A DNA stretch of 64,000 nt from Candidatus Microgenomates bacterium (GTDB taxonomy: Bacteria; Patescibacteriota; JACPGU01): assembly GCA_016188915.1 (NCBI GenBank), contig JACPGU010000002.1, positions 11,388 to 75,387 on the forward strand, read 5' to 3'. Below the pieces are notes generated by a model. It was not told the origin of the DNA. It worked only from the letters and a program-made list of their open reading frames with translations, and made no database searches. This document shows, one piece after another, positions 805-61,699 of the stretch; positions within the stretch are counted from its first letter, which is position 1, and every line of letters begins with the position of its first letter. The translations under genes and the position numbers were made by a program.

Positions 805-1122
805 TTACAAAACAATATTAATCACCAGCGCCAAAACGGTAAAAATGAAAGTCCAGCCGATAGTAAATGAGAGCATCCTGACTGCCTCTTTTTTCTTCCC
901 GTCCAGATACAGCATCACAGGCTTGGCGAAAAATAGAGAACCCATGATAGAGGCGGAAAGAACTAGAATTAGCAGTATCATCATCGGACCAACCATAGTC
1001 ATGTCATCCCCTTGGCCAAAAAGCGCTTCACCATTGGACATCAAAAGAGCAACAAGAGAAATATAGACGACAGCTAGCAGGGCATTGAGAAAACTTTGCA
1101 AAACCAGATTCTTTTTTTGCAT
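805..1122 (-). CDS. Small hydrophobic membrane protein (3 predicted TM segments), hypothetical
   Basis: 105-aa ORF, strongly hydrophobic; its first ~23 codons are duplicated at 2477-2549. Confidence 0.45.
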   Translation of the reverse strand: MQKKNLVLQSFLNALLAVVYISLVALLMSNGEALFGQGDDMTMVGPMMILLILVLSASIMGSLFFAKPVMLYLDGKKKEAVRMLSFTIGWTFIFTVLALVINIVL

Positions 1123-1123
1123 A
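1051..1123. repeat. 73-bp direct repeat, copy A (partner at 2477-2549); covers the 5' end of the 805-1122 gene
   Basis: ~69/73 identical to 2477-2549. Confidence 0.85.
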
Positions 1124-1172
1124 CATTTGACTTAATAATATGATAGTCTATGCAACCCTCCGCGAGTACAGC

Positions 1173-1236
1173 CTATTTGCAAATTTCTGATACCTGCCTT
1201 GCCGTAATGAAATCTATTTGCAAATTCCTGATATTC
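1173..1236. promoter_or_regulatory. Two 22-bp direct repeats (ctatttgcaaatttctgatacc / ctatttgcaaattcctgatattc) spaced 41 bp, upstream of the membrane-protein gene
   Basis: Read directly; 1 mismatch between copies. Confidence 0.4.
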
Positions 1237-1297
1237 AGGATATTGCAAGAGATTACACGAGAGAGGGCATGATAAAGTTAATGTTTTTTGTTTATTA

Positions 1298-2365
1298 CTA
1301 TTTAATTCTTTTTTTCCCGTTTTTCTCTACTTCCCTCAACTTTTTAAAAACGTCTCTATCGAAATCAGACTCTATTTTCTGGGCTTTATTAAATTCATTG
1401 TATTCCGTAAACGCTTTTTGCTCGGCTTTTTCGTGTGATACACCACCCTTCCCGTCCAAAATTTTGTATTCATTGAAACCCAAAAATTTGTCTACACTTT
1501 CTGCCAGATCTTCCATTTTCATAGTCTTATGATTTTCTATAATGTTTTCGATGTAATCAAAGAACCCCGAAATAGTCCTTTCCAGTCTTTTGATCTGATC
1601 CTCTTCGAGATAATTTTTTGCCACCCTAACATCTGTTTTGATTATTCTGCCCGTTGGGGAATTTTTCCAAGTAGTCAGCCCCATGTGTGGCTTGGTTTTG
1701 TCGGCTTTAGAATAAATAATTTCTGCAGCGGTTTGACCAGCAATAGCAAAATGAAATTTATTTTGCACCATTGAGTAGAAACTTTTTGTAATTTCTGATT
1801 GAGGGTCATAGTCCATACTGCACTCGGCAAAAATGTCTGTGATTTGCTGATAGATTCTGCGTTCGCTGGCGCGGATTGAACGAACTCTCTCCAAAAGCTC
1901 CATGAAATAATCTTTGCCAAAATGACTTCCGTTTTTGAGTCGTTCATCGTCCATAGCAAAACCCTTGATAATATACTCTCGCAGAGCTTGGGTCGCCCAA
2001 ATACGAAATCTGGTAGCCTGCGTGCTATTCACCCTATATCCAACAGATATGATAGCGTCAAGATTGTAAAAATTTGTATTGTATGGCTTGCCGTCACTGG
2101 CAGTTGTCCGGAATTTCCGGATAACTGAATATTTGCTCAATTCACTGCTTTTAAAGATATTCTGCAGATGTTCATTGACCGTTCTTACGTCTACGTCGAA
2201 AAGCTCGGCCATTTTCTTTTGGGTCAGCCAAACAGTTTCGTTTTGAAAAAAAACATCAATATTAACCTTGCCCTCAAACGTGGTATACAACAAAAACCTT
2301 GATTGTTGTGGTGTTGTGTTTTCCGATTCCCCTCTTGGCATATATTTAGGCTTATCATAATCCAA
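1298..2365 (-). CDS. RhuM-family virulence/DNA-binding protein
   Basis: Conserved RhuM block: WLTQKKMAELFDVDVRTVNEHLQNIF...YNLDAIISVGYRVNSTQATRFRIWATQ. Typical neighbour of hsdR. Confidence 0.7.
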   Translation of the reverse strand: MDYDKPKYMPRGESENTTPQQSRFLLYTTFEGKVNIDVFFQNETVWLTQKKMAELFDVDVRTVNEHLQNIFKSSELSKYSVIRKFRTTASDGKPYNTNFYNLDAIISVGYRVNSTQATRFRIWATQALREYIIKGFAMDDERLKNGSHFGKDYFMELLERVRSIRASERRIYQQITDIFAECSMDYDPQSEITKSFYSMVQNKFHFAIAGQTAAEIIYSKADKTKPHMGLTTWKNSPTGRIIKTDVRVAKNYLEEDQIKRLERTISGFFDYIENIIENHKTMKMEDLAESVDKFLGFNEYKILDGKGGVSHEKAEQKAFTEYNEFNKAQKIESDFDRDVFKKLREVEKNGKKRIK

Positions 2366-4986: not shown

Positions 4987-5057
4987 GTCTATATTATACT
5001 ATTTTCTGCTTATTTAAGCAAATATAGCAATCAAAAAACATCTCCCCTAGAGATGTT

Positions 5058-16380: not shown

Positions 16381-16502
16381 CCTCCCCCTCCTTGGCTAAG
16401 AAAATAAGAAATTAAAAAAGTAAGAAATTAACGGAATATGGATTTCTTAATTAATTGCATTCTTGATTTTTTATTTTTTTGTTTTCTTAATTTTTTAGTT
16501 TT

Positions 16503-16829
16503 TTACTTCAGTGCTGACTCTATCCTTTTTACGATATTATCTTTCGGCTGCGCCCCAATAATATTGTCAACTATTTTACCTTCTTTGAATATCAACATAG
16601 CTGGAATACTCATTATTTTATATCTTCCGGCAACAATAGGATTTTCATCTACGTTGACTTTGCCCACTATTATTTTGTCCTCCATGTCTTTGGCTATTTC
16701 CTCTATCACCGGCCCCAATATTTTACAAGGACCACACCAAGGCGCCCAAAAATCTATTAGGGCTACTTTTCCGCTCGATAGTATTTCTTTATCAAAAGAA
16801 TAATCATCTAAAATCAAAGGATTTGGCAT
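16503..16829 (-). CDS. trxA: Thioredoxin
   Basis: WAPWCGPCK active site; 108 aa. Confidence 0.9.
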   Translation of the reverse strand: MPNPLILDDYSFDKEILSSGKVALIDFWAPWCGPCKILGPVIEEIAKDMEDKIIVGKVNVDENPIVAGRYKIMSIPAMLIFKEGKIVDNIIGAQPKDNIVKRIESALK

Positions 16830-23253: not shown

Positions 23254-25458
23254 CTATTCCCAATGTTTAATGGTATTTATCTCCTCTATTTTTTCTTTCA
23301 GTTTATCATATTTTTCCAAACCTTCATCAATTATAGTCTGCGCCTCTGCGCGAGCCAATTTAATCAAGGATTGGTCCCAGAGATTGGCAATTTTTAATTG
23401 CGGGAATCCTGACTGCTCCGCGCCCCAAAATTCACCCGGACCACGGTTTTTCAAGTCAAACTCGGCTAGCTCAAATCCTGAATTCGTCCCCGCAAATTTT
23501 TTCAATCTCTCTATCGCTTCGGGATTTCTGCTTTCAGAAAAAACCAAACAATAGGCTTGCCTCTCACCTCGCCCCACTCGTCCGCGAAATTGGTGGAGTT
23601 GCGCCAGCCCAAATCTGTCAGCGTTTTCCACTACCATAATGTTCGCATTGGGTATATCGATCCCCACTTCAATCACGGAAGTGGAAACGAGGATTTGTGT
23701 TTTTTTGTTTTTGAAGTCTTGGAGAATTTTTTCTTTTTCTTCTGACTTTATTCTGCCATGTAAAAAAGCTATCTGAAAATCTGGAAATATTTTTTTTAAT
23801 CTTTCCGCCTCTTCCATCACCGTCCTGCGGTCATCCTGTAGAGACGAAGCATGCTTCGTCTCTACAAAATCCGAATTCTTGTTTTCTTGCTTACTTGTTT
23901 TTCCCGCCTCTATATTCAATCTTATTGTATGGCAGGACCTCGCCAAAGGCGGTGGCTTGTTTTCTCGACTAATCAACGAACATACCACAAACACTTGCCC
24001 TCCCTCCTTCACTTTCTCCGCGATGAATTCGTAGGCCTTCTTCCTCTTCGTCCCATCCACAAATCGCGAAACAATCGGTTTCCTGCCTTTTGGCAATTCG
24101 TCAATAATGGAAATATCCAAGTCGCCATAAAGAGTTAGGGCAAGCGACCTCGGGATAGGTGTCGCCGTCATAGAGAGAAAATGTGGTGTCAAATTTTTAA
24201 GGCCAGATTTTTCTTTCAAAATTTTTCTTTGCTCCACGCCAAAACGATGTTGCTCATCCACGATGACCAGGCCAATTTTTTTGTATTTAACTTTTTTTGA
24301 AAACAGGGCGTGAGTACCGATGATAATATCAGATTGAAGATTGAAGATTTTAGATTTAGGATTTTCAATTTTTCCCTGAATCCTGAATCCTGAATCCTGA
24401 ATCCTACCTGTAATCAAGCTCACGCTTACGCCAAACTCGCTCAATAATTTAGAAATAGTCTCATAATGTTGTTGCGCCAAGATCTCCGTCGGACACATAA
24501 TCACAGACTGATAACCCGCGTCATGCGCCATCAGACAAGTGGTAGCGGCCACCAGCGTCTTGCCACTGCCAACATCTCCCTCTAGCAATCTATTCATTGG
24601 GTTTTCCTTTTCTATATCCTGCAATATCTCCCACAGAGATTTCTTCTGTGAAAGCGTCATTTCAAAGGGCAAAGTGGCGAGAAACTTCTTTGTTAATTCT
24701 AGATTGAATTTGATTTTTGGCGCCTTAAATTTCTCTAGCTCTTTTTTTTGGGACAAAAGTGAAAGCTGAATCAGAAATATCTCGTCGAAACCGAGACGAC
24801 GGCGCGCTTCAACTAACAATTCCCGACTAGAAGGGAAATGGATCTCGCGCAAAGCATCAGCCAGAGGGAGAAAGTCGTTTCTTTTAATAATGTCTAGAGG
24901 CAAGTATTCAGGTATTTGCAGAGACGAAACATGCTCTGTCTTTGTGAAAAACGGGTAGATAATTTTCCTCAAAAATTTTGAATTCAAACCATCTGTTTGA
25001 GAATAAATAGGGATAATCCCTCTGGTATGGATTAAATCTGCTTCTTCTTCCAATTTTTCCACCATTGGATTATTGAATTGCAAACCCCTCCTCCCAAAAC
25101 CAATTTTGCCACTTAAAATTATTTGGTCCCCTATTTTAAGGTTATTGGTAATATATGGCTGATTAAACCAGATAGCGCTGACTGTGCTTTCTCCGTCTGA
25201 CACTGCCATAGTGGTAATACTCATCCGGCGTCTTTTCCAGGCTTTTTTTGTGCCCAAATCCCAGATTTGGCCACGAATCGTCCCACTTTCGCCATTTTTT
25301 AGCTCTTTTATGGTTTTTATATGTGAAAAATCCTCCCACCTGCGAGGAAAATGATAGACTAAATCTTTTATTATCTCCACGCCTAATTTCTTGAATCTTT
25401 CGGTTGTCTTCATCCCTACGCCAGGCAGTTGGAAGATAGGTGTCTCCAGGTTTAGCAT
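23254..25458 (-). CDS. recG: ATP-dependent DNA helicase RecG (contains two palindromic insertions and a heptanucleotide repeat)
   Basis: Wedge/helicase motifs: [28 protein letters not shown]. Confidence 0.9.
23838..23865. repeat. Palindromic element family A (GTAGAGACGAAGCATGCTTCGTCTCTAC), in-frame in recG (ETKHASSLQ)
   Basis: Perfect 28-bp palindrome. Confidence 0.75.
24376..24403. repeat. Heptanucleotide microsatellite (CTGAATC)x4 inside recG coding sequence
   Basis: Encodes [17 protein letters not shown]; unit length not divisible by 3. Confidence 0.8.
24918..24947. repeat. Degenerate family A palindrome (gcagagacgaaacatgctctgtctttgtg), in-frame in recG
   Basis: Shares the AGAGAC..GCATGC core; right arm decayed. 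Confidence 0.5.
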
Positions 25459-26032
25459 ACCTGCATTCTATCACAAAAATTGGTAATGGATTAGCAATAA
25501 TTAATGTTTTTTGATAAAGGGCTTGACAGGGCTATTTTCTTGTGCTAAATTAATATTCGTACCCTAAAAAATAGCAGAGAAAATGGCTTAAGAGAGAGAA
25601 AAATGGGTGTATCTCTACCCCTTTATAGGGACCCCCCGTTAATTCGGGTCATACACCCATCTTTCTCCCTCCAAAGCCCTCCTTTCCTTGATTTTTCAAG
25701 AAAAGGTATCAACTCGCTTGGGGGCTAGACGCCTATTTTACAAAAAATAGGGTCCCGCTCTTTCAAAAGCGGGTTGTCTCGAGGGAACGCTCCAAAAGAG
25801 CCGGAATAGAACCGGAAAACACCTTCTTTTTAGAACTGTTTTCTTTATTCCGCTCTTTGGCGGAAAGATCGCTCCGGCGATGCGTTCTAATCCTTTGCTT
25901 TCAAAAGAGCACTAAAAAGCGGATCTGAGAAAAGTGTAGAGGTCAGACGACCTTATTTAGACCTCCCGGTCTTCACGTTTGGTCTTTTGGCCAAGCTACA
26001 CTCTATCTTTTCCGCTTTTTTTTACAAAATTA

Positions 26033-26061
26033 TTGACTTTTCTATAAATTTATAGTATAAT
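26033..26061 (+). promoter_or_regulatory. Consensus sigma70-type promoter TTGACT-N17-TATAAT
   Basis: ttgacttttctataaatttatagtataat; followed by palindrome TGGCCTAGCCA and SD AAGGGAGG 7 nt before ATG 26121. Confidence 0.65.
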
Positions 26062-26120
26062 GGTAGAAGTGGCCTAGCCACTATTAAAAATTTGTCAAAA
26101 ACCAAAAGGGAGGTTTTTTC

Positions 26121-27044
26121 ATGAAAAAGATGGTTGCGCTGTTTCTTTTGATGGCCACGATGGCTATCACGGATCTGTCCCCCGTTTGGGCAGGTGAACT
26201 GCAGGTGGAGGTACAAAAGCTTTCCACCGCGAGCAATCCACCCCTGCATCGGCTCGCCGTCTTGAAGACGGACATCGAGCAGATGGATCGAATCCTGGCG
26301 GAGACGACCGAAATCAGGGAAAATATTTTTCAGGTCTCCCTGACCGCCGAGAAGGAAAACATCCGACTGACCGGACTCTCCCTCTTGCTTCCGAACCTGG
26401 ACCGGTCGGGAAATTTCCGCGAAGACGGACTGACCAATCTCGAGGAGGCCGAGCTTTATCTCGGCACCGAGCTGGAAGTCTCCGTCGACCGAAAAACCGG
26501 GCTGATTTCGACCAACAAGGTCGGCACCGCTCTGCCCAAGGACAACACCATCTCTTGGGGACTGGATATGCTCGTTCCGGCCGGCAAAACTATCTCTCTG
26601 TTCGTTTCGGGAAAATTTTCCGAAACTTACGCGGAAACAGGGAAAAATTCCTGGCCACCGGCGGTTCAACTTTTGAGCCTGACCGCCGAGAATATCGACG
26701 GCCAACCGGCGGAAGTCAATTTCTCTTCCCGCCTCCCCGATGAAGGAGTGAAGTTGGAGAGAAACCTTCTACCGGCACCGGATAACTCCGGCCGAGCACT
26801 GATTCGGGTGAAAAATTCCGACCCGATCAGCATCGAGCCGGGGATGACATTGGAAATCGGCCATGAAATCATGGTCGTGGCCAAATGCCATACCGCCTGC
26901 GCCGCTCCGGAAACCGAGCTGGAGGTCATTCGCGGAGACAACCGCGAGATGCCCCTTTTCGGAACGATGACATCCCCGCACTACGCGGGCGAGAAGGTCG
27001 AAGTCTACGACCTCCGCCCCCATCCACAAGCTCCCACGATCTAG
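26121..27044 (+). CDS. Secreted protein of unknown function, compositionally foreign (GC ~55%)
   Basis: Signal peptide MKKMVALFLLMATMAITDLSPVWAGE; GC-rich codons (ctg/gcc/ggc) unlike neighbours; strong SD. Confidence 0.6.
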   Translation: MKKMVALFLLMATMAITDLSPVWAGELQVEVQKLSTASNPPLHRLAVLKTDIEQMDRILAETTEIRENIFQVSLTAEKENIRLTGLSLLLPNLDRSGNFREDGLTNLEEAELYLGTELEVSVDRKTGLISTNKVGTALPKDNTISWGLDMLVPAGKTISLFVSGKFSETYAETGKNSWPPAVQLLSLTAENIDGQPAEVNFSSRLPDEGVKLERNLLPAPDNSGRALIRVKNSDPISIEPGMTLEIGHEIMVVAKCHTACAAPETELEVIRGDNREMPLFGTMTSPHYAGEKVEVYDLRPHPQAPTI

Positions 27045-27070
27045 GAGAGCAAAAAAGTTGAGTTGAACTA

Positions 27071-27100
27071 AAAGGCCACCCAAAAGGTGGCCTTTTTCTT
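27071..27100 (+). terminator. Strong rho-independent terminator GGCCACC-caaaa-GGTGGCC-TTTTT
   Basis: Read directly. Confidence 0.75.
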
Positions 27101-27134
27101 ATTTAATTTCTTATTTTCTTAGTTTTTTAATTTC

Positions 27135-27899
27135 TTATTTTTCTAGCTCCAAAACTATCGGGCAATGATCCGACCCTATCACCTCCGGCCGGATATAACT
27201 TTTCTTCACCTTGTCTTTCAACTCACTGGATACCACAAAATAATCTATCCGCCAGCCGACATTGTTGGCCCGGGCATTGCCGAAATGGCTCCACCAAGTA
27301 TAGTGACCACCATCTTTTTCAAACAGACGAAAAGTATCAACATAACCGTGCTCTAAAAGTTTAGTGAACCAGCCTCGTTCTTCGTCGGTAAATCCCTTTT
27401 TTCCACGGTTAGCTTTGAAATTAGTCAGATCGATTTCTTCATGCGCCACATTGAAATCACCACAAATTATAATCGGTTTTTTCTCTCTTAGCTTTTCGCA
27501 GAATTTCAAAAGGTGATCATTGTATTTCATGCGAAATGGCAAGCGAGAGAGTTCGTCATTGGCGTTGGGGAAATAACAATTGAGCAAATAAAAGTCTTCA
27601 AACTCCGTAACGATAGTCCTCCCCTCTAAATCCGCATCGCTCCAACCAATACTATCAAATACCGATTGTGGCTTTTTTTTCGTATAAGTGACAACCCCGC
27701 TGTAACCTTTTTTCACCGAGGAAAAAGACCAGAAAGATTCATAGCCTTCTATATTAGAAAGAAACATGCCGACTTTTTCTGGTGTTACTTTGGTTTCCTG
27801 AAAACAATAGATGTCGGCTTTTTCAGATTTGATAAAATCAAGCAGCCCCGTCTTGACCGAGGAATTGATGCCATTGACATTCCAGCAGATAATTTTCAT
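27135..27899 (-). CDS. xthA: Exodeoxyribonuclease III (AP endonuclease)
   Basis: MKIICWNVNGI...CFQETK...GDFNVAH...SDHCPI. Confidence 0.9.
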   Translation of the reverse strand: MKIICWNVNGINSSVKTGLLDFIKSEKADIYCFQETKVTPEKVGMFLSNIEGYESFWSFSSVKKGYSGVVTYTKKKPQSVFDSIGWSDADLEGRTIVTEFEDFYLLNCYFPNANDELSRLPFRMKYNDHLLKFCEKLREKKPIIICGDFNVAHEEIDLTNFKANRGKKGFTDEERGWFTKLLEHGYVDTFRLFEKDGGHYTWWSHFGNARANNVGWRIDYFVVSSELKDKVKKSYIRPEVIGSDHCPIVLELEK

Positions 27900-43834: not shown

Positions 43835-44668
43835 CTAGAATGCGACGACCACGCTTGCTAGCAAACGATTATTCATTGGACTCGCTTCGTAGTCCAAAAT
43901 CGCGAAGCTTTCCTCCTCTTTGAATCGTAGCCCAATAGTATTGATCGTGCTGATATGTTGGGTAAAGTCGGTTTGAAAATGGAGACTAAATCTTTTTCCG
44001 AAAGATTTCTCAGTAAAAACATAGCCACCACTTTTCTTCTTCCCATTGTCGCTTCGCAGATAGAAAGCTCCCCGTGTTATAATTCCGAGATTTGCATCCT
44101 GCCTTTCTCCGCTCACAAGGATTTGCGAATTGTGGTTATCATCGTAGCGGAGAATGGTGCTAACAGACTTCCCGGGGTCTTCCCTTGCCAGTCTCAAACT
44201 GACTTGAGAATATCCGAGATTATCCTGAATTGCTGTTCCGTTCGGAGATCCGCTGACCTCCAGTATGGCCGAAGAATCAGCAGAAAGTTTTTCCGTCACC
44301 TGGAGTCCGTTACCGTAGAATCCGCCAGAAATTCTTGGCCATGAGACTGTGTAAAGATTCTGCGGTGCGGGCAGGCTGTAGCCCTCCAGCAACGGGATCC
44401 GTCCGATGGTGATTCTTCCACGTGACACAAACGCGAGCTTCAACCAGTCTTCACTGTCGAGATTGTATCGATTCGGCTCGATGCGGACGAAGTAATAAGT
44501 GCCCGTTGCTGTCAGTACGAATAAGTTGAACCGCATCTGCGAGATGCTGGTTTTGCCAGAACCTCCAAGATAATCAGTCCGAACAACTCCCGATAAAGTC
44601 GTCTGGGCTGTTGCTCTCATTGTCGTGTTCAAAACGATAAGCACCGATAGAAAAACGATTTTCTTCAT
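43835..44668 (-). CDS. Secreted beta-rich protein, possibly a beta-barrel (C-terminal ...VVVAF); hypothetical
   Basis: Signal peptide MKKIVFLSVLIVLNTTMRATAQ; alternating-residue strands; GC higher than genome average. Confidence 0.4.
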   Translation of the reverse strand: MKKIVFLSVLIVLNTTMRATAQTTLSGVVRTDYLGGSGKTSISQMRFNLFVLTATGTYYFVRIEPNRYNLDSEDWLKLAFVSRGRITIGRIPLLEGYSLPAPQNLYTVSWPRISGGFYGNGLQVTEKLSADSSAILEVSGSPNGTAIQDNLGYSQVSLRLAREDPGKSVSTILRYDDNHNSQILVSGERQDANLGIITRGAFYLRSDNGKKKSGGYVFTEKSFGKRFSLHFQTDFTQHISTINTIGLRFKEEESFAILDYEASPMNNRLLASVVVAF

Positions 44669-52086: not shown

Positions 52087-52143
52087 ACTTCGTATTATAC
52101 TACAAACAAAACACCTCTACTGGTGATTTTGTTTGTGTCGCTC

Positions 52144-52828: not shown

Positions 52829-53000
52829 ATGACCTCCTGTTTAACCCAGGTTTTCCCCAGGCCTTATTAATATTAAACCCATTATACCTGGTGCTAACCT
52901 GGAAGTCAAAAAGAGCATAGTACTCTTTATCCCCTTATAAAAATAAGTCACCAAAAGTGACCCGGATTAGCTCTTTGGCGTATTGTATATCGCGCCACCC

Positions 53001-54236
53001 TTATTGATAGCTATAAACATCCACTAGCTCACCGCTGGCATTGCGCAAATAGGCTGGTTCACCGATTCTGTCCCAGACAGGAGCCGTATCAGTAAGAAAA
53101 CTAAAACCACCTTTATTGGTATTTATTCTAATGGTCTGTCCTGGTTGAATAAGAAAACCTGGAAAAGTAAAAACATGGCCATCGGAATCTCTTACTGTCC
53201 ATCCGGCCAGGTCTTTTTCTCCGTCTCCTGTGTTGCGAACTTCTACATATTCATCTTGACCCTCACCATTGATGTCCAGACTATATAGAATATAACTAAC
53301 AATAATCTTGGATGGGTAGATGATTATTGGCGGCGGATCATTATTGCCCCCATCATTATCGCCTCCACCATCGCTTCCATTGCCATTACCATTGCCATTA
53401 TCGCCTCCGCTGTTATCGCCTCCTCCATTATTCCCATTACCACCACCTCCACCATTATCATTCTCATTGTTCCCGCTGCCATTGCTACCATCATCATTAC
53501 CGCTATCGCTATCATCGTTATTATAGTTTACCGAGATAGATTCGCTAGTAGAGCCATCTTCGTCAGAAGCTACTATATCAATAGTATTATCTCCCGGATC
53601 CAATATTATTTCCGCCTCAAAATGGCCATCGTCATCAACTGGGGTATCTTGTCCATCTATCTCTACCGTTGCTCCAGGATCGGTATCGCCAATGACAGTA
53701 ATATTAGGATCAATGACTACGCTTTCATCATTTGGCGACGATATCACCAACTCTGGACCTGGTCCTACTATATATTCTATTGTCTCATCAATGATGGTTG
53801 CTTCTGTCCCATCGGATCTTTCCTCTCTGACTAGTAAATCATTTTCGCCCGGGTTAAGATCGATGACAAATGAAAATGAACCATCGGGGTTGATAATTAG
53901 ATTGTCGGCGTCTATCAATAGCCCATCTAAAAATATTTTTATTTTAGAATCTGAGTTACCTAATTGTCCATTTATATCCAAGGGAGAATCATAAACTACT
54001 CTATTCTCCGGATCAAAGGCTTGTCGGCCACGGAAAGGATTAAACCAAATGAGTCCCAACAGAAGGAGTAGTGGCAAAAGGCAGCCGAAGAAGAAGGGGA
54101 TGATAGGCAAACGCCTTTTATCTTTTCCCTCCTCTTTTTTCTTGCGACGCTTTTCTACCAATTCTTCCAGATTTTTTATTTCTTCTTTTGGCATTCTATT
54201 TTTGTTTGCTACGCTATTAATAACAATATAGCACAA
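53001..54236 (-). CDS. Membrane-anchored surface protein with Gly/Asn/Asp-rich linker and C-terminal lamin-tail domain (LTD)
   Basis: N-terminal TM; LTD-like EYVEVRNTGDGEKDLAGWTVRDSDGHVFTFPGFLIQPGQTIRINT. Confidence 0.55.
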   Translation of the reverse strand: MCYIVINSVANKNRMPKEEIKNLEELVEKRRKKKEEGKDKRRLPIIPFFFGCLLPLLLLLGLIWFNPFRGRQAFDPENRVVYDSPLDINGQLGNSDSKIKIFLDGLLIDADNLIINPDGSFSFVIDLNPGENDLLVREERSDGTEATIIDETIEYIVGPGPELVISSPNDESVVIDPNITVIGDTDPGATVEIDGQDTPVDDDGHFEAEIILDPGDNTIDIVASDEDGSTSESISVNYNNDDSDSGNDDGSNGSGNNENDNGGGGGNGNNGGGDNSGGDNGNGNGNGSDGGGDNDGGNNDPPPIIIYPSKIIVSYILYSLDINGEGQDEYVEVRNTGDGEKDLAGWTVRDSDGHVFTFPGFLIQPGQTIRINTNKGGFSFLTDTAPVWDRIGEPAYLRNASGELVDVYSYQ

Positions 54237-54557: not shown

Positions 54558-57500
54558 TTACTCAACAATATTATCAATATTGTCCACTTTTTTAGGATTA
54601 TTGGCATCAAAGTCTTCTGCCCTCTCCCAGTCTATAGGTGTTACATTTACAACCGTTCCACTGTCTTCATCAAATTCAATAATAGTATCTTTTATTCTCC
54701 ATCTTTTATCAATTTTTAATTTATCTCTAAATAAATCTGCCAGTTCTTTATTCTTTTCAGAAACATCTTGAATTATCGCATTTATCTTCTCATCGCTAAA
54801 TTTACCAGATTCCCTTAAATGCTTTTCAAATTTTCTTCCAGAAATTCCTTCTACTTTTTTCATAAGAAGATAGCTACCATCAACTTCTTTTTTCCCAGAC
54901 ATAAAACCAACCGGTTCTGCCGTAGGCAATCCCACCTTTTTCGCCGATATTAATATAGAAAATTCTTTTCTAGATTCTTTGGCTTTGCGAAGTTCTATTT
55001 TTTTTGCTACTATTTCTGTTCCATCGCTTAATTCAAAAGAGATAATTTCCTCATCTGGATATTCTCCTTCGCCTTTGCCACCCTTTAGCAAAGTACCACT
55101 TTCAGCAAAAAACTTTTTTGGGTTTTCAATAAATTCTTTTGGTAATAAATCCAAGTACTCCTGTCTTATCCTTATGGAATAATTTTCAGAATCAACGCCG
55201 ACATTACCAGATGGTTCATGATACAGTTTTTCTTGCAACCAATAGTGGCGAGCAATAGCTTGCTTTATCATCATATAGTAGAACTGTTCTTCGGGGCTTG
55301 TTGGTTGTGCGATATGGTGAATTTTTCCAGTTTCTTCGTCAATAATTAACCCCTCGGCTGTATTTTCTGTTTTGGCATTATGCTCAATATATTCAATAAT
55401 TTCCGATCGAGCATTTTCTGGGATACCTTTAACACGTCTATGTACACTTGGAGCAGAGAGCAATCTAATCCTTCTCTCAATATCTTCGTCATCAAAATCC
55501 ATCACTCTCATTATTTGTTCAGGTATTGTGCCTGTATATCCAGTATCATAAAAAAGAGGGTCAGCATCGGGGGTAATTCTTTCTTGTTCAAGAAATTGAC
55601 GCTTAGTATCATAATCAAGATTGTCTCTAAAATATCTAGGGTATACAAGATATTGAGGATTTATTTCAATTATGTCCCCCATTTTTTGCAACTTTTTTCT
55701 GCCCTCAGGTCCAAGCTTTTTGCGACGCGCTATATCCTGCGCCCATCTTCCTATCCATGCATAAACACCATCTCTTCCAAGAAACACTTCGGTCGGATAA
55801 CGACCTGTTTCACGAAGATTATCAAATTCCTCATATAGCTTATCGTATAGGGGAATGTCCACTTCGTGAACTTTAATATATTTTTTAAATCCCTCCTCCA
55901 AAACACCGTCCATATTATTTAGCGATTCTCGTAAATCAGAAATGCGATTTAAGTCGCCTCCTATACTTTGCACAAGGTATCTTATTGCAAAATATTGAAG
56001 ATTATTTGATAAATCAAAGAATGGAGTCATTTTTACAGCCAACGATTCTGGACTAGCCAAGGCTTTTTTATCATCATCATTAATTTTAGAATTGGATTGA
56101 AATCTTGTAATAAATTTTTCGTAAGATTCTTTTATTTTTTCATTTATTTTTGCGAGCAGTGGCTCTATTTCAGATTGATTAATGTTCAGATCTTTCATCC
56201 TTCTCGGATTTATTTTTCCTCTCATTATATCAGTTAGGGCGTCAGTTAAAACTGCTTGTTGTTTATTAAAAACCCAAGGATTATTTTCATAAGGGTTACT
56301 TTCCCTGAAACCCTCACTTCCATGACTATAGCTATAATCATGTTCTCCATCGCCAAATTGCGCTCCGTGTTCAGCTAATGTTTTATTCGCTTTTTCAATA
56401 ACATCCTGCACCCATGGTTCGTTCTTCCACGAGAAATTCTCTATGCCATTAATAAACTTATTCGCTACAGAATAATGCGAAACAGCGACAAGCATTCCTT
56501 TACCCGCCCATTCTTTATCATGGTAGTTGCCTGCGTTCTCCAAAAAATAGTCAGCTAAATCATCATTGGATTCTAAGTTATCCAGAATCATCTCTATTGC
56601 TTTTTCGGAGGTTAAGGGCATAGGAAGGAGTGTATCAAAATCTTTTCCAAGATGCTTAACAAACGAAATTAAATTGTTAGGATTTATTTTAGACGCACAT
56701 TCTTCATCGGATTGTCGCATGTCTGATAATTGAAATACTCCTTCTGACAAATTAAATGACTTTTTTATTTCTAAGGCCTCGCTAATTTCACCGGCAGATG
56801 CTTTATTGAGCACAGCCTTTTTCGCAGCTTCTTGGATCTCGGGTAGCTTAATGACTTCTACGAGAAGATAATTGAATGCACTTTTTATTCTGTTCGTAGT
56901 ATTGATATCGCCAGACGACAGCTTATCTATTAACACTTTTTTTGCGGCTTCCTGGATTATCAAATCTGAGATATTAAATATCTTTAGTATTTTTTCGACA
57001 TTTTGAGTGTCAACATTGGCTAATGAATCCATTAGGCTTCCTTTTATAGCTTCTTTGGTTTCCTCAAGATCTGGGTTTTTTTCAATTTCCTCTTTTGAAT
57101 ATAGGATATAACCATTAGATAGGTCCTCAAGTATTTTATTTTTTATTGCTTTTTGAATTATGTCCCCCGATACATTTAATTCATTCTTTATTCTAATTGC
57201 CCAAGAGAATGCGCGTTTCTCCACCATCAAAATTATCTCTTTCTTTGCAGCTTCTTGAAATTCAGGTGAGTCAGCAAAATCACGGGGAATATTTAATGCC
57301 TTTATTATTTCAAAGTAATGACGAACATCTTCAGTATAATAGCCACCATGACCTAGCTTTCTTATTAATCCTTCTCTTACAGCTTCCTGGACTTCAGGTA
57401 AATTACTAAAGCCCTCGGGAAGACCAAGCTCGTTTTTTATTTTAATGACGTCATAGACATCGCCATTACTCACTTTGCGATATAAACCTTCCTCTAAGGC

Positions 57501-58325
57501 TTTTTGAAATTCAGGTGAACTGTCAAAATCTTCTTGAGCGATAAATTCGTTTTTTAGCTCAATAGCGTTATGGACATTCCCGAATGCCATCTCCTTAATT
57601 ATTTTTTTCTTAGCGGCCTCTCGGACTTCAGGTGAGTTAACTATATCGTCGGGTAGATCTAATTTTTTATTAATCTCAATAGCTCTATATGGCTCTCCAA
57701 AATATGAGAAACTTTCAACAATTGTTTCCTTTGCGACTTCCAAAACTTCAGATGAGCTAATAAAGCTATCTGGTAAGTGAAGTCTCTTTATTATCTCAAT
57801 GGCTTTATCGGGGAGACCATGCGATATGTAGAATATCGCCCCCTTCTTTGCAGCTTCCTGAATTGCAGGTGAATTGATAAAATCATCGTCAGGCAAACCC
57901 AATGCTTTTTGTATTTCGAAAATATCATCTATACGATAACTAAAGATATCTTCGAATAGTTTTGAAGCGCGATAATTTATAGCTTTTTGAACTTCGGGTG
58001 AATTAACTATCTCATTTAGCTGGTGGGCGCTAAGGCCACAGTTATTTTTAATACGCAATAGTTCACTCATACCGTCCCTAGACACCGTGTACATCAAGGT
58101 CTCTATTATGCGTTTTCTCGTACTTTTCTGTTCTGGCGTTAAAATAATTTCTTCTCCATCTTCCTTTTTTTCTTTTGGGCCAAAAATAGAATCAACATGT
58201 TTCTGGGCTTGTTCTTGAACTTTGTCAAATTCTTCAGCAGTCGGTTTTTCACCAGCAAGCCTCTGCATTTCAGCAGCTTCAGCTTGAGCGCGAATTGGAT
58301 CGTATAAATTTGGGTTTTCTGACAT
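54558..58325 (-). CDS. Very large (1255 aa) hypothetical protein with ~10-12 N-terminal tandem ~36-aa helical repeats (SPExQEAAKK...AIEIKNEL.LP..F)
   Basis: Repeats read from the translation; no known catalytic motif recognised. Confidence 0.55.
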   Translation of the reverse strand: MSENPNLYDPIRAQAEAAEMQRLAGEKPTAEEFDKVQEQAQKHVDSIFGPKEKKEDGEEIILTPEQKSTRKRIIETLMYTVSRDGMSELLRIKNNCGLSAHQLNEIVNSPEVQKAINYRASKLFEDIFSYRIDDIFEIQKALGLPDDDFINSPAIQEAAKKGAIFYISHGLPDKAIEIIKRLHLPDSFISSSEVLEVAKETIVESFSYFGEPYRAIEINKKLDLPDDIVNSPEVREAAKKKIIKEMAFGNVHNAIELKNEFIAQEDFDSSPEFQKALEEGLYRKVSNGDVYDVIKIKNELGLPEGFSNLPEVQEAVREGLIRKLGHGGYYTEDVRHYFEIIKALNIPRDFADSPEFQEAAKKEIILMVEKRAFSWAIRIKNELNVSGDIIQKAIKNKILEDLSNGYILYSKEEIEKNPDLEETKEAIKGSLMDSLANVDTQNVEKILKIFNISDLIIQEAAKKVLIDKLSSGDINTTNRIKSAFNYLLVEVIKLPEIQEAAKKAVLNKASAGEISEALEIKKSFNLSEGVFQLSDMRQSDEECASKINPNNLISFVKHLGKDFDTLLPMPLTSEKAIEMILDNLESNDDLADYFLENAGNYHDKEWAGKGMLVAVSHYSVANKFINGIENFSWKNEPWVQDVIEKANKTLAEHGAQFGDGEHDYSYSHGSEGFRESNPYENNPWVFNKQQAVLTDALTDIMRGKINPRRMKDLNINQSEIEPLLAKINEKIKESYEKFITRFQSNSKINDDDKKALASPESLAVKMTPFFDLSNNLQYFAIRYLVQSIGGDLNRISDLRESLNNMDGVLEEGFKKYIKVHEVDIPLYDKLYEEFDNLRETGRYPTEVFLGRDGVYAWIGRWAQDIARRKKLGPEGRKKLQKMGDIIEINPQYLVYPRYFRDNLDYDTKRQFLEQERITPDADPLFYDTGYTGTIPEQIMRVMDFDDEDIERRIRLLSAPSVHRRVKGIPENARSEIIEYIEHNAKTENTAEGLIIDEETGKIHHIAQPTSPEEQFYYMMIKQAIARHYWLQEKLYHEPSGNVGVDSENYSIRIRQEYLDLLPKEFIENPKKFFAESGTLLKGGKGEGEYPDEEIISFELSDGTEIVAKKIELRKAKESRKEFSILISAKKVGLPTAEPVGFMSGKKEVDGSYLLMKKVEGISGRKFEKHLRESGKFSDEKINAIIQDVSEKNKELADLFRDKLKIDKRWRIKDTIIEFDEDSGTVVNVTPIDWERAEDFDANNPKKVDNIDNIVE

Positions 58326-61635: not shown

Positions 61636-61699
61636 CGTAGATTATATTTAAATGTAAGCCTGACAATAATAGCACAGAGAGACTTTTTTGTCCACTTCT

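Follow-up and report, generated by a model that had tools for sequence, protein, structure and literature searches.

A single GC-rich gene lodged between recG and xth in a groundwater Candidatus Microgenomates bacterium is probably a horizontally acquired genomic islet, with a coding sequence (CDS) whose composition points to a donor of clearly higher GC. It lies within a 64-kb stretch of DNA, here called the window, which was analysed as a whole and supplies all coordinates unless another contig is named. In the NCBI record its product is a hypothetical protein, HYV44_01295 (MBI2448180.1), encoded on a contig of 311,798 nt under the name 'Candidatus Microgenomates bacterium'; the source is an uncultivated groundwater MAG. 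The features of the locus are collected in Table 1.

Table 1. Features of the recG-xth region and of related sites. Positions are those of the window, except for L096 and L097, the contigs of two relatives.
Feature	Position	Strand	Remarks
CDS	26121-27044	+	307 aa, 56% GC
Predicted Sec-type signal peptide MKKMVALFLLMATMAITDLSPVWA	26121-26192	+	predicted cleavage between A and GE
Putative sigma-70-type promoter TTGACT-N17-TATAAT	26033-26061	+	matches consensus at 11 of 12 positions
Small stem-loop GTGGC-CTA-GCCAC	26069-26081	+	read from sequence; at predicted mRNA 5' end
Shine-Dalgarno (SD) sequence AAGGGAGG	26106-26113	+	7 nt before ATG
Intrinsic terminator AAAAGGCCACC-CAAAA-GGTGGCCTTTT	27070-27096	both	resident, common to convergent xth
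19-nt direct repeat, left copy CCAAAAGGGAGGTTTTTTC	26102-26120	+	SD AAGGGAGG and 7-nt spacer
19-nt direct repeat, right copy CCAAAAGGTGGCCTTTTTC	27080-27098	+	terminator loop, 3' arm and T-run
Indel of ~1,025 nt	26045-27069		in window, not in L096 or L097; breakpoints about ±20 nt
Candidate ncRNA of ~465 nt	25558-26023	+	resident, conserved, highly structured; directly upstream of insertion
Putative ncRNA promoter TTGACA-N17-TAAATT, TG-extended	25523-25551	+	boxes invariant in L096
ncRNA homologue in L096	about 1040-1540	-	
ncRNA homologue in L097	about 1080-1271	-	truncated
REP-like palindromes in L096	about 950-1000	-	GC-rich, perfect; CCTGCCTGCCGGCAGGCAGG and variants
REP-like palindromes in L097	about 870-1010	-	GC-rich, perfect; CCTGCCTGCCGGCAGGCAGG and variants
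AT-rich 8-nt-period motif	27099-27146; about 38682, 11748, 16396-16505, 49154, 23220, 46189, 46910		

Composition and coding status

As far as sequence tells, the open reading frame (ORF) is a real protein gene, and it translates to the 307 aa given in the preliminary description. In 5,000 shuffled versions of the segment, stop-free runs reached at most 276 codons, so that none attained 307. Moreover, GC at the first, second and third codon positions (0.59/0.41/0.69) is typical of coding sequence, and the order GC3 > GC1 > GC2 fits the sense frame. A reading of the segment as a GC-rich structured non-coding RNA, or as some other element with an accidental ORF, is highly improbable. Structured RNAs do form GC-rich islands in AT-rich genomes, a structured ncRNA adjoins the segment, and a 227-aa ORF is also present on its antisense strand. 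However, such a reading is at odds with the shuffles and the codon-position GC, and with the canonical signal peptide that directly follows the SD; Rfam yields nothing, and the antisense ORFs (two were searched in Pfam, PHROGs and NCBIfam) have no family.

The ORF is the GC maximum of the window, at 56.2% compared with a mean of 40.2% (sd 3.7%, 924-nt windows). The GC content of ~55% first ascribed to it is thus borne out, but the ~35% ascribed to its neighbours is too low, as about 40% was measured. Sliding-window GC and codon usage agree on a foreign composition. GC3 is 0.69 in the ORF versus 0.24-0.54 in 39 host ORFs (z = 3.9), and the synonymous-codon distance from pooled host usage gives z = 4.7. 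TTA, ATA, AGT, TCA, CCT and CGT are never used, CTG, ATC, TCC, ACC, CCG and GTC are preferred, and, compared with host proteins, the product has half the Lys and Ile and almost twice the Pro and Thr. Expression-linked codon bias does not explain this composition, since the host translation genes IF3, L35 and L20 have a GC3 of only 0.34-0.38. The step in GC matches the ends of the CDS within about 20 nt. The ORF is the compositional outlier of the 64 kb.

Genuineness of the join

The locus has been assembled more than once. Logan contigs of runs SRR12113422 and SRR12113420 are 100% identical to the window over 12,668 nt and 13,455 nt, respectively, with both junctions included, and both carry recG, the ORF, xth, VKOR, uvrA and further genes. 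Within about ±12 kb the neighbours are all housekeeping genes, namely class II ribonucleotide reductase, two tRNA-Leu, comEA, rsmD, recG, xth, VKOR, uvrA, bactofilin, DAGK, IF3, L35, L20, SecA and HPF. The GC spike is very probably not a binning or assembly error in the public MAG. A contig chimera had been among the first explanations offered, and a sharp compositional step is indeed the classic warning sign of a chimeric assembly or of a contaminant read-through joining a GC-rich fragment to the contig. Yet such an artefact is now extremely improbable, given that two independent de Bruijn assemblies from different runs agree in full across both junctions and that the NCBI contig extends over 312 kb. 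In addition, the GC-rich part amounts to exactly one complete ORF with an optimally spaced SD, set between conserved, colinear resident flanks 1 kb apart. The junction formerly placed at ~25460 does not hold either, for 25459-26044 is resident DNA and houses the conserved candidate ncRNA gene.

An engineered segment was the other artificial origin under consideration. A near-consensus promoter, a strong SD, a clean terminator and a high GC confined to the CDS, as in a codon-optimised insert, would suit a synthetic expression cassette, but the probability of this origin is practically negligible. The cassette showed no DNA similarity to 72,556 plasmids and 50,697 phages by blastn, distant mode included, its terminator and -35 box are homologous to natural sequence of wild relatives, and the genome comes from a groundwater CPR bacterium that has not been cultivated.

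The empty site in relatives

The lineage is thinly sampled, with the best xth match among GTDB species representatives at 56% and the best recG match in JGI metagenomes at 44%. Only two closer relatives were retrieved, via a 5.8-billion-cluster protein search and cluster look-up, and both are represented by short (1.3-1.8 kb), low-coverage contigs. L096 (1,836 nt) comes from Hainich groundwater (ENA ERZ1292618) and encodes an Xth 81% identical in amino acids; the Xth of L097 (1,271 nt, GCA_040960375.1) is 88% identical. Read in window orientation, L096 passes from the start of recG through a conserved promoter, a homologue of 25558-26023, a T-run, the hairpin TCACCC-AAA-GGGTGG with T7 and a GC-rich palindrome to the xth stop. 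L097 begins inside the homologue of 25558-26023 and goes on with the T-run, GCAAAAAATCATTGATTTATTCCAAA, the terminator CCCGCCC-N8-GGGCGGG with T6, and about 170 nt with palindromes before the xth stop.

Inspection of sister genomes had been proposed in the preliminary description, and the ORF is absent from the recG–ncRNA–xth locus in both relatives. Between recG and xth lie 640 nt in L096, compared with 1,676 nt in the window. The limits of the indel were set by scanning all possible deletions for the best colinearity with the spacers of both relatives. Its content comprises the -10 box, the 5' hairpin, the leader, the SD, the CDS and a 25-nt 3' tail; the 76-nt portion of the leader that falls inside it is AT-rich and host-like. 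Limits at about 26045-27069 imply that the terminator is resident and the -35 box probably so, with the rest of the cassette inside the indel.

The stretch from the terminator to the xth stop is a hotspot for indels. REP-like palindromes occur there in the relatives (Table 1), and the window has none. These palindromes were also considered as a source of the GC-rich DNA, and were rejected, as no similarity was detected at E <= 1e-3.

Expression signals and the direct repeat

The putative promoter, the palindromic element and the SD reported upstream of the gene are all found (Table 1), the palindromic element corresponding in RNA to the hairpin GTGGC-CUA-GCCAC. No other site within 5 kb is as promoter-like; the pattern TTGAC-N18-TATAAT has two occurrences in the 64 kb, with 0.11 expected. 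The sole other exact site of this kind in the window lies at 52881-52909 on the minus strand. L097 has TTGATT aligned at the window -35 box TTGACT, which is consistent with a probably resident -35 box; the -10 box falls inside the indel. Transcription is predicted to start at about 26068, and the stem-loop would then lie at the 5' end of the mRNA, possibly as a stabiliser.

An SD was found for 2 of the 40 window ORFs, and a TATAAT-like -10-like box 4-10 nt before the ATG for 9 of the 40, both counts being rough because start codons were taken as the first ATG. The latter suggests widespread leaderless mRNAs; example sites upstream of host ORFs are 25459-25480 (recG), 4987-5010, 52087-52110 and 61636-61655. 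Since the host hardly uses SD sequences, the 'textbook' SD of the ORF is atypical for this genome.

The terminator consists of an 11-bp stem (6 GC) with a 5-nt loop and a following T-run, and an A-run on the other side of the stem makes it bidirectional. Homologous hairpins, those quoted above, occupy the same place in L096 and L097. A terminator does follow the gene, as had been reported, but it is resident DNA that is also present in relatives without the gene. The implied idea that the signals had come with the foreign gene therefore keeps the -10 box, leader and SD, which lie in the indel, and loses the terminator and probably the -35 box. In several minus-strand genes, an AT-rich motif of 8-nt periodicity (TTTCTTAT/TTTCTTAG...) recurs on the stop codon or immediately beyond it; it may be a 3' UTR or termination signal.

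The CDS is bracketed by two copies of a 19-nt direct repeat that are only 79% identical. The 19-mer pattern is found nowhere else in the window (0 versus 0.04 matches expected), a comparison that is partly circular as the pattern was derived from the same copies. In L097, the 3' half of the terminator reads CAAAAGGGCGGGTTTTTTC and agrees with the left copy at 17/18 positions. From these likenesses we infer that the 19-mers look like a duplicated target or the outcome of recombination between terminator-like sites.

Gain, loss and origin

Horizontal acquisition, as already suggested in the preliminary description, is supported by the foreign composition and codon usage and by absence of the gene in the two nearest relatives. 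The direction of the event rests on composition, from which a gain appears likely. The window, L096 and L097 are about equidistant, with xth nucleotide identities of 0.77-0.79 and third-position identities of 0.52-0.57. No syntenic outgroup was found: four contigs with 56-58% xth homologues are not syntenic, the JGI recG matches share no gene order beyond recG-rsmD, and a search for sister genomes with the recG N-terminus was unproductive. With three equidistant taxa and no outgroup found, parsimony cannot tell a gain from a single loss in the ancestor of the relatives.

An ancestral gene at recG-xth, deleted once in the L096/L097 lineage, for example by recombination between the terminator-like 19-mers, is unlikely, although several observations suit it. 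The taxa are only roughly equidistant, with L096 and L097 marginally closer together, so that one loss is as parsimonious as one gain; the direct repeat around the CDS offers a substrate, and the single terminator of the relatives resembles both of its copies. A gain is favoured in that an ancestral gene should have moved toward host GC3 at this divergence and the ORF has not. While xth has drifted to a third-position identity of about 52-57%, GC3 is still 0.69 in the ORF versus about 0.40 in the host, and the host-favoured codons are wholly missing. Moreover, a full HMMER search of 1.84 billion representatives recovered no homologue in any other genome, which does not sit easily with an old resident gene.

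Two observations stand against acquisition as well. For a recent transfer it is unusual that 15 billion proteins include no donor family, and an AT-rich leader inside the indel is not predicted by a simple one-step transfer of donor DNA. A two-step history is possible: a different low-GC replicon would have taken up the CDS first, and CDS and leader would later have moved on together. Within about ±12 kb there are no mobility genes, and the site has neither a tRNA gene nor terminal inverted repeats.

A more elaborate scenario, quite unlikely when all its parts are taken together, would draw the CDS from an unsampled organism of higher GC, possibly the host cell of the episymbiont. The CDS would have been captured almost nucleotide-precisely into a resident terminator region, where the -35 box and terminator already existed and a duplicated terminator arm furnished the SD; it would have been expressed at once as a secreted protein and would have founded a new cell-cell interaction family.

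Comparison with known elements

The gene resembles horizontally acquired orphan-gene islets in its atypical GC and codons, its presence or absence at an orthologous locus and its position in an intergenic spacer beside a terminator. However, no integrase, transposase, tRNA target or phage remnant accompanies it, the foreign composition ends at the CDS, and some of the expression signals belong to the resident DNA. At 307 aa and with 16 points more GC than its host, the ORF also departs from typical bacterial ORFans, which are short and richer in AT than the genomes that carry them.

The compact unit of ~1 kb with one ORF also recalls an integron cassette, and a GTTRRRY-like heptamer (GTTGAGT / GTTGAAC) stands 3' of the stop, a match expected by chance. 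A cassette was rejected: there is no attC-type imperfect inverted repeat, the sole 3' inverted repeat being the resident terminator, no integrase or attI occurs within about ±12 kb, and no cassette array is present. Furthermore, unlike a cassette, the inserted unit has its own -10 box and SD. Hybrid promoters generated by insertion sequences (IS) offer another parallel, with a -35 box that is seemingly resident, a -10 box that arrives with the inserted DNA and an imperfect direct repeat at the borders. An IS or MITE was likewise rejected, as there are no terminal inverted repeats at 26045/27069, no transposase and no second copy in the window. The 19-nt repeat, besides, is far longer than the usual target duplications and only 79% identical.

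The predicted secreted orphan protein

The N-terminus fits a generic Sec/SPase I signal, and the protein is predicted to be secreted. By inspection, an n-h-c layout can be recognised, with MKK as the n-region, a hydrophobic core at residues 4-17 and V-W-A before the cleavage site. The W occupies the middle (-2) position, so the -3/-1 rule is satisfied by V and A. The protein has no other hydrophobic segment, and its highest-scoring hydrophobicity windows all fall in residues 1-25. A signal peptide had indeed been reported, and as 'Gram-negative-type'; the peptide is there, but the qualifier has no basis. A bacterial lipoprotein was rejected, as there is no lipobox L-x-x-C and no Cys in residues 1-40. 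The predicted mature protein is acidic, with 283 aa, 31 kDa and a pI of 4.8, and the only two Cys of the whole protein both fall in CHTAC near residue 255.

The 307-aa protein is a strict orphan, recovering nothing but itself in a word-indexed search of 5.8 billion clusters and again in the full HMMER search. The earlier statement that no domain is recognisable stands for Pfam, NCBIfam and PHROGs, which give neither domain nor family; a sequence search of the PDB, tblastn against phages and plasmids and a search of IMG/VR also returned no match. No paralogues occur in the window or in 103 loci, and there are no significant internal repeats, only weak colinear motifs (SLTAE, LLPxxDxSG, TELEV). 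Two single-sequence AlphaFold2 runs yielded β-rich models that are unreliable (pLDDT 39 and 41). A Foldseek search of the PDB with the first model gave generic β-sandwich matches with TM <=0.23 and none at E <= 0.001, which are not usable. Literature searches found no description of the gene, the neighbouring RNA or the sequencing runs.

Being a strict orphan with predicted secretion, the protein is a candidate surface or host-interaction factor; a role in attachment to, or interaction with, the host of the episymbiont is a guess. Elsewhere in the window, three minus-strand genes (54558-58325, 43835-44668 and 53001-54194) encode possibly surface-located or family-less proteins at host-typical GC. 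Among their products, one of 1,255 aa and one of 277 aa have no Pfam family, the latter gene with one of the few strong SDs, and one contains Glucodextranase-B and Lamin-tail domains.

The neighbouring candidate ncRNA

The 662-nt spacer between recG and the ORF contains a candidate new ncRNA, proposed from three closely related sequences. It has its own putative promoter, and its 3' end is a long hairpin followed by a run of 8 T. On the plus strand, 25555-26032 folds with a z of -9.6 (MFE). A covariance model of domain A (25581-25780), built from the window sequence alone, scores L096 at 154.7 bits. The 71 pairs of this domain divide into 55 without change, 5 with a compatible one-sided change, 7 altered on both sides and 4 that no longer pair. 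For domain B1 (25777-25894) the model scores L096 at 51.8 bits and the truncated L097 at 20.8 bits, with 95.6% of the cells in 43 pairs paired and 7 compensatory pairs, compared with 0-1 in slid controls. The two modelled domains thus contain 14 compensatory pairs. For instance, a 5-bp stem reads ATCGC/GCGAT in the window and GCCAC/GTGGC in L096 as well as L097.

A small-protein gene inside the ncRNA was rejected, the 41-aa ORF being frameshifted in L096. Searching Rfam 15 (4,227 families) gave nothing near threshold in 25400-27200, L096 or L097, and only tRNAs pass the gathering threshold in the window. With the covariance models R1/R2, searches of 1.44 Mb and 0.28 Mb of other loci yielded no additional copies, and an exact 23-mer scan of IMG/VR for the ncRNA was empty. 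The candidate resembles OLE, GOLLD, ROOL, raiA and HEARO in its own promoter and terminator, its many conserved helices with compensatory changes and its unusually long, GC-enriched intergenic region. It differs from them in being represented by three close sequences only and in having no recognised associated protein gene. The neighbouring RNA may be more novel than the inserted gene.

Proposed expression and significance

If the gene works as its signals predict, transcription would start at a hybrid promoter composed of a resident -35 box and a -10 box within the indel. It would be strong, and its 53-nt leader would open with the small stem-loop and carry a strong SD for SD-dependent translation. 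The Sec pathway would export the 307-aa precursor, with cleavage following VWA (residue 24). The resulting β-rich mature protein would be released outside the cell or at its surface. Transcription would stop at the pre-existing bidirectional terminator.

With its probable history of gain, the locus would present a case in which a streamlined CPR genome wires in a single foreign gene without recognisable mobile-element machinery, seen at base-pair resolution. The foreign gene would reuse the resident terminator and part of a promoter. As an orphan in 15 billion sequences, it is also a test case for the origins of orphan genes. To our knowledge, almost no large ncRNA classes have been described from this phylum; the ~465-nt RNA next to the gene, if confirmed, would add one.
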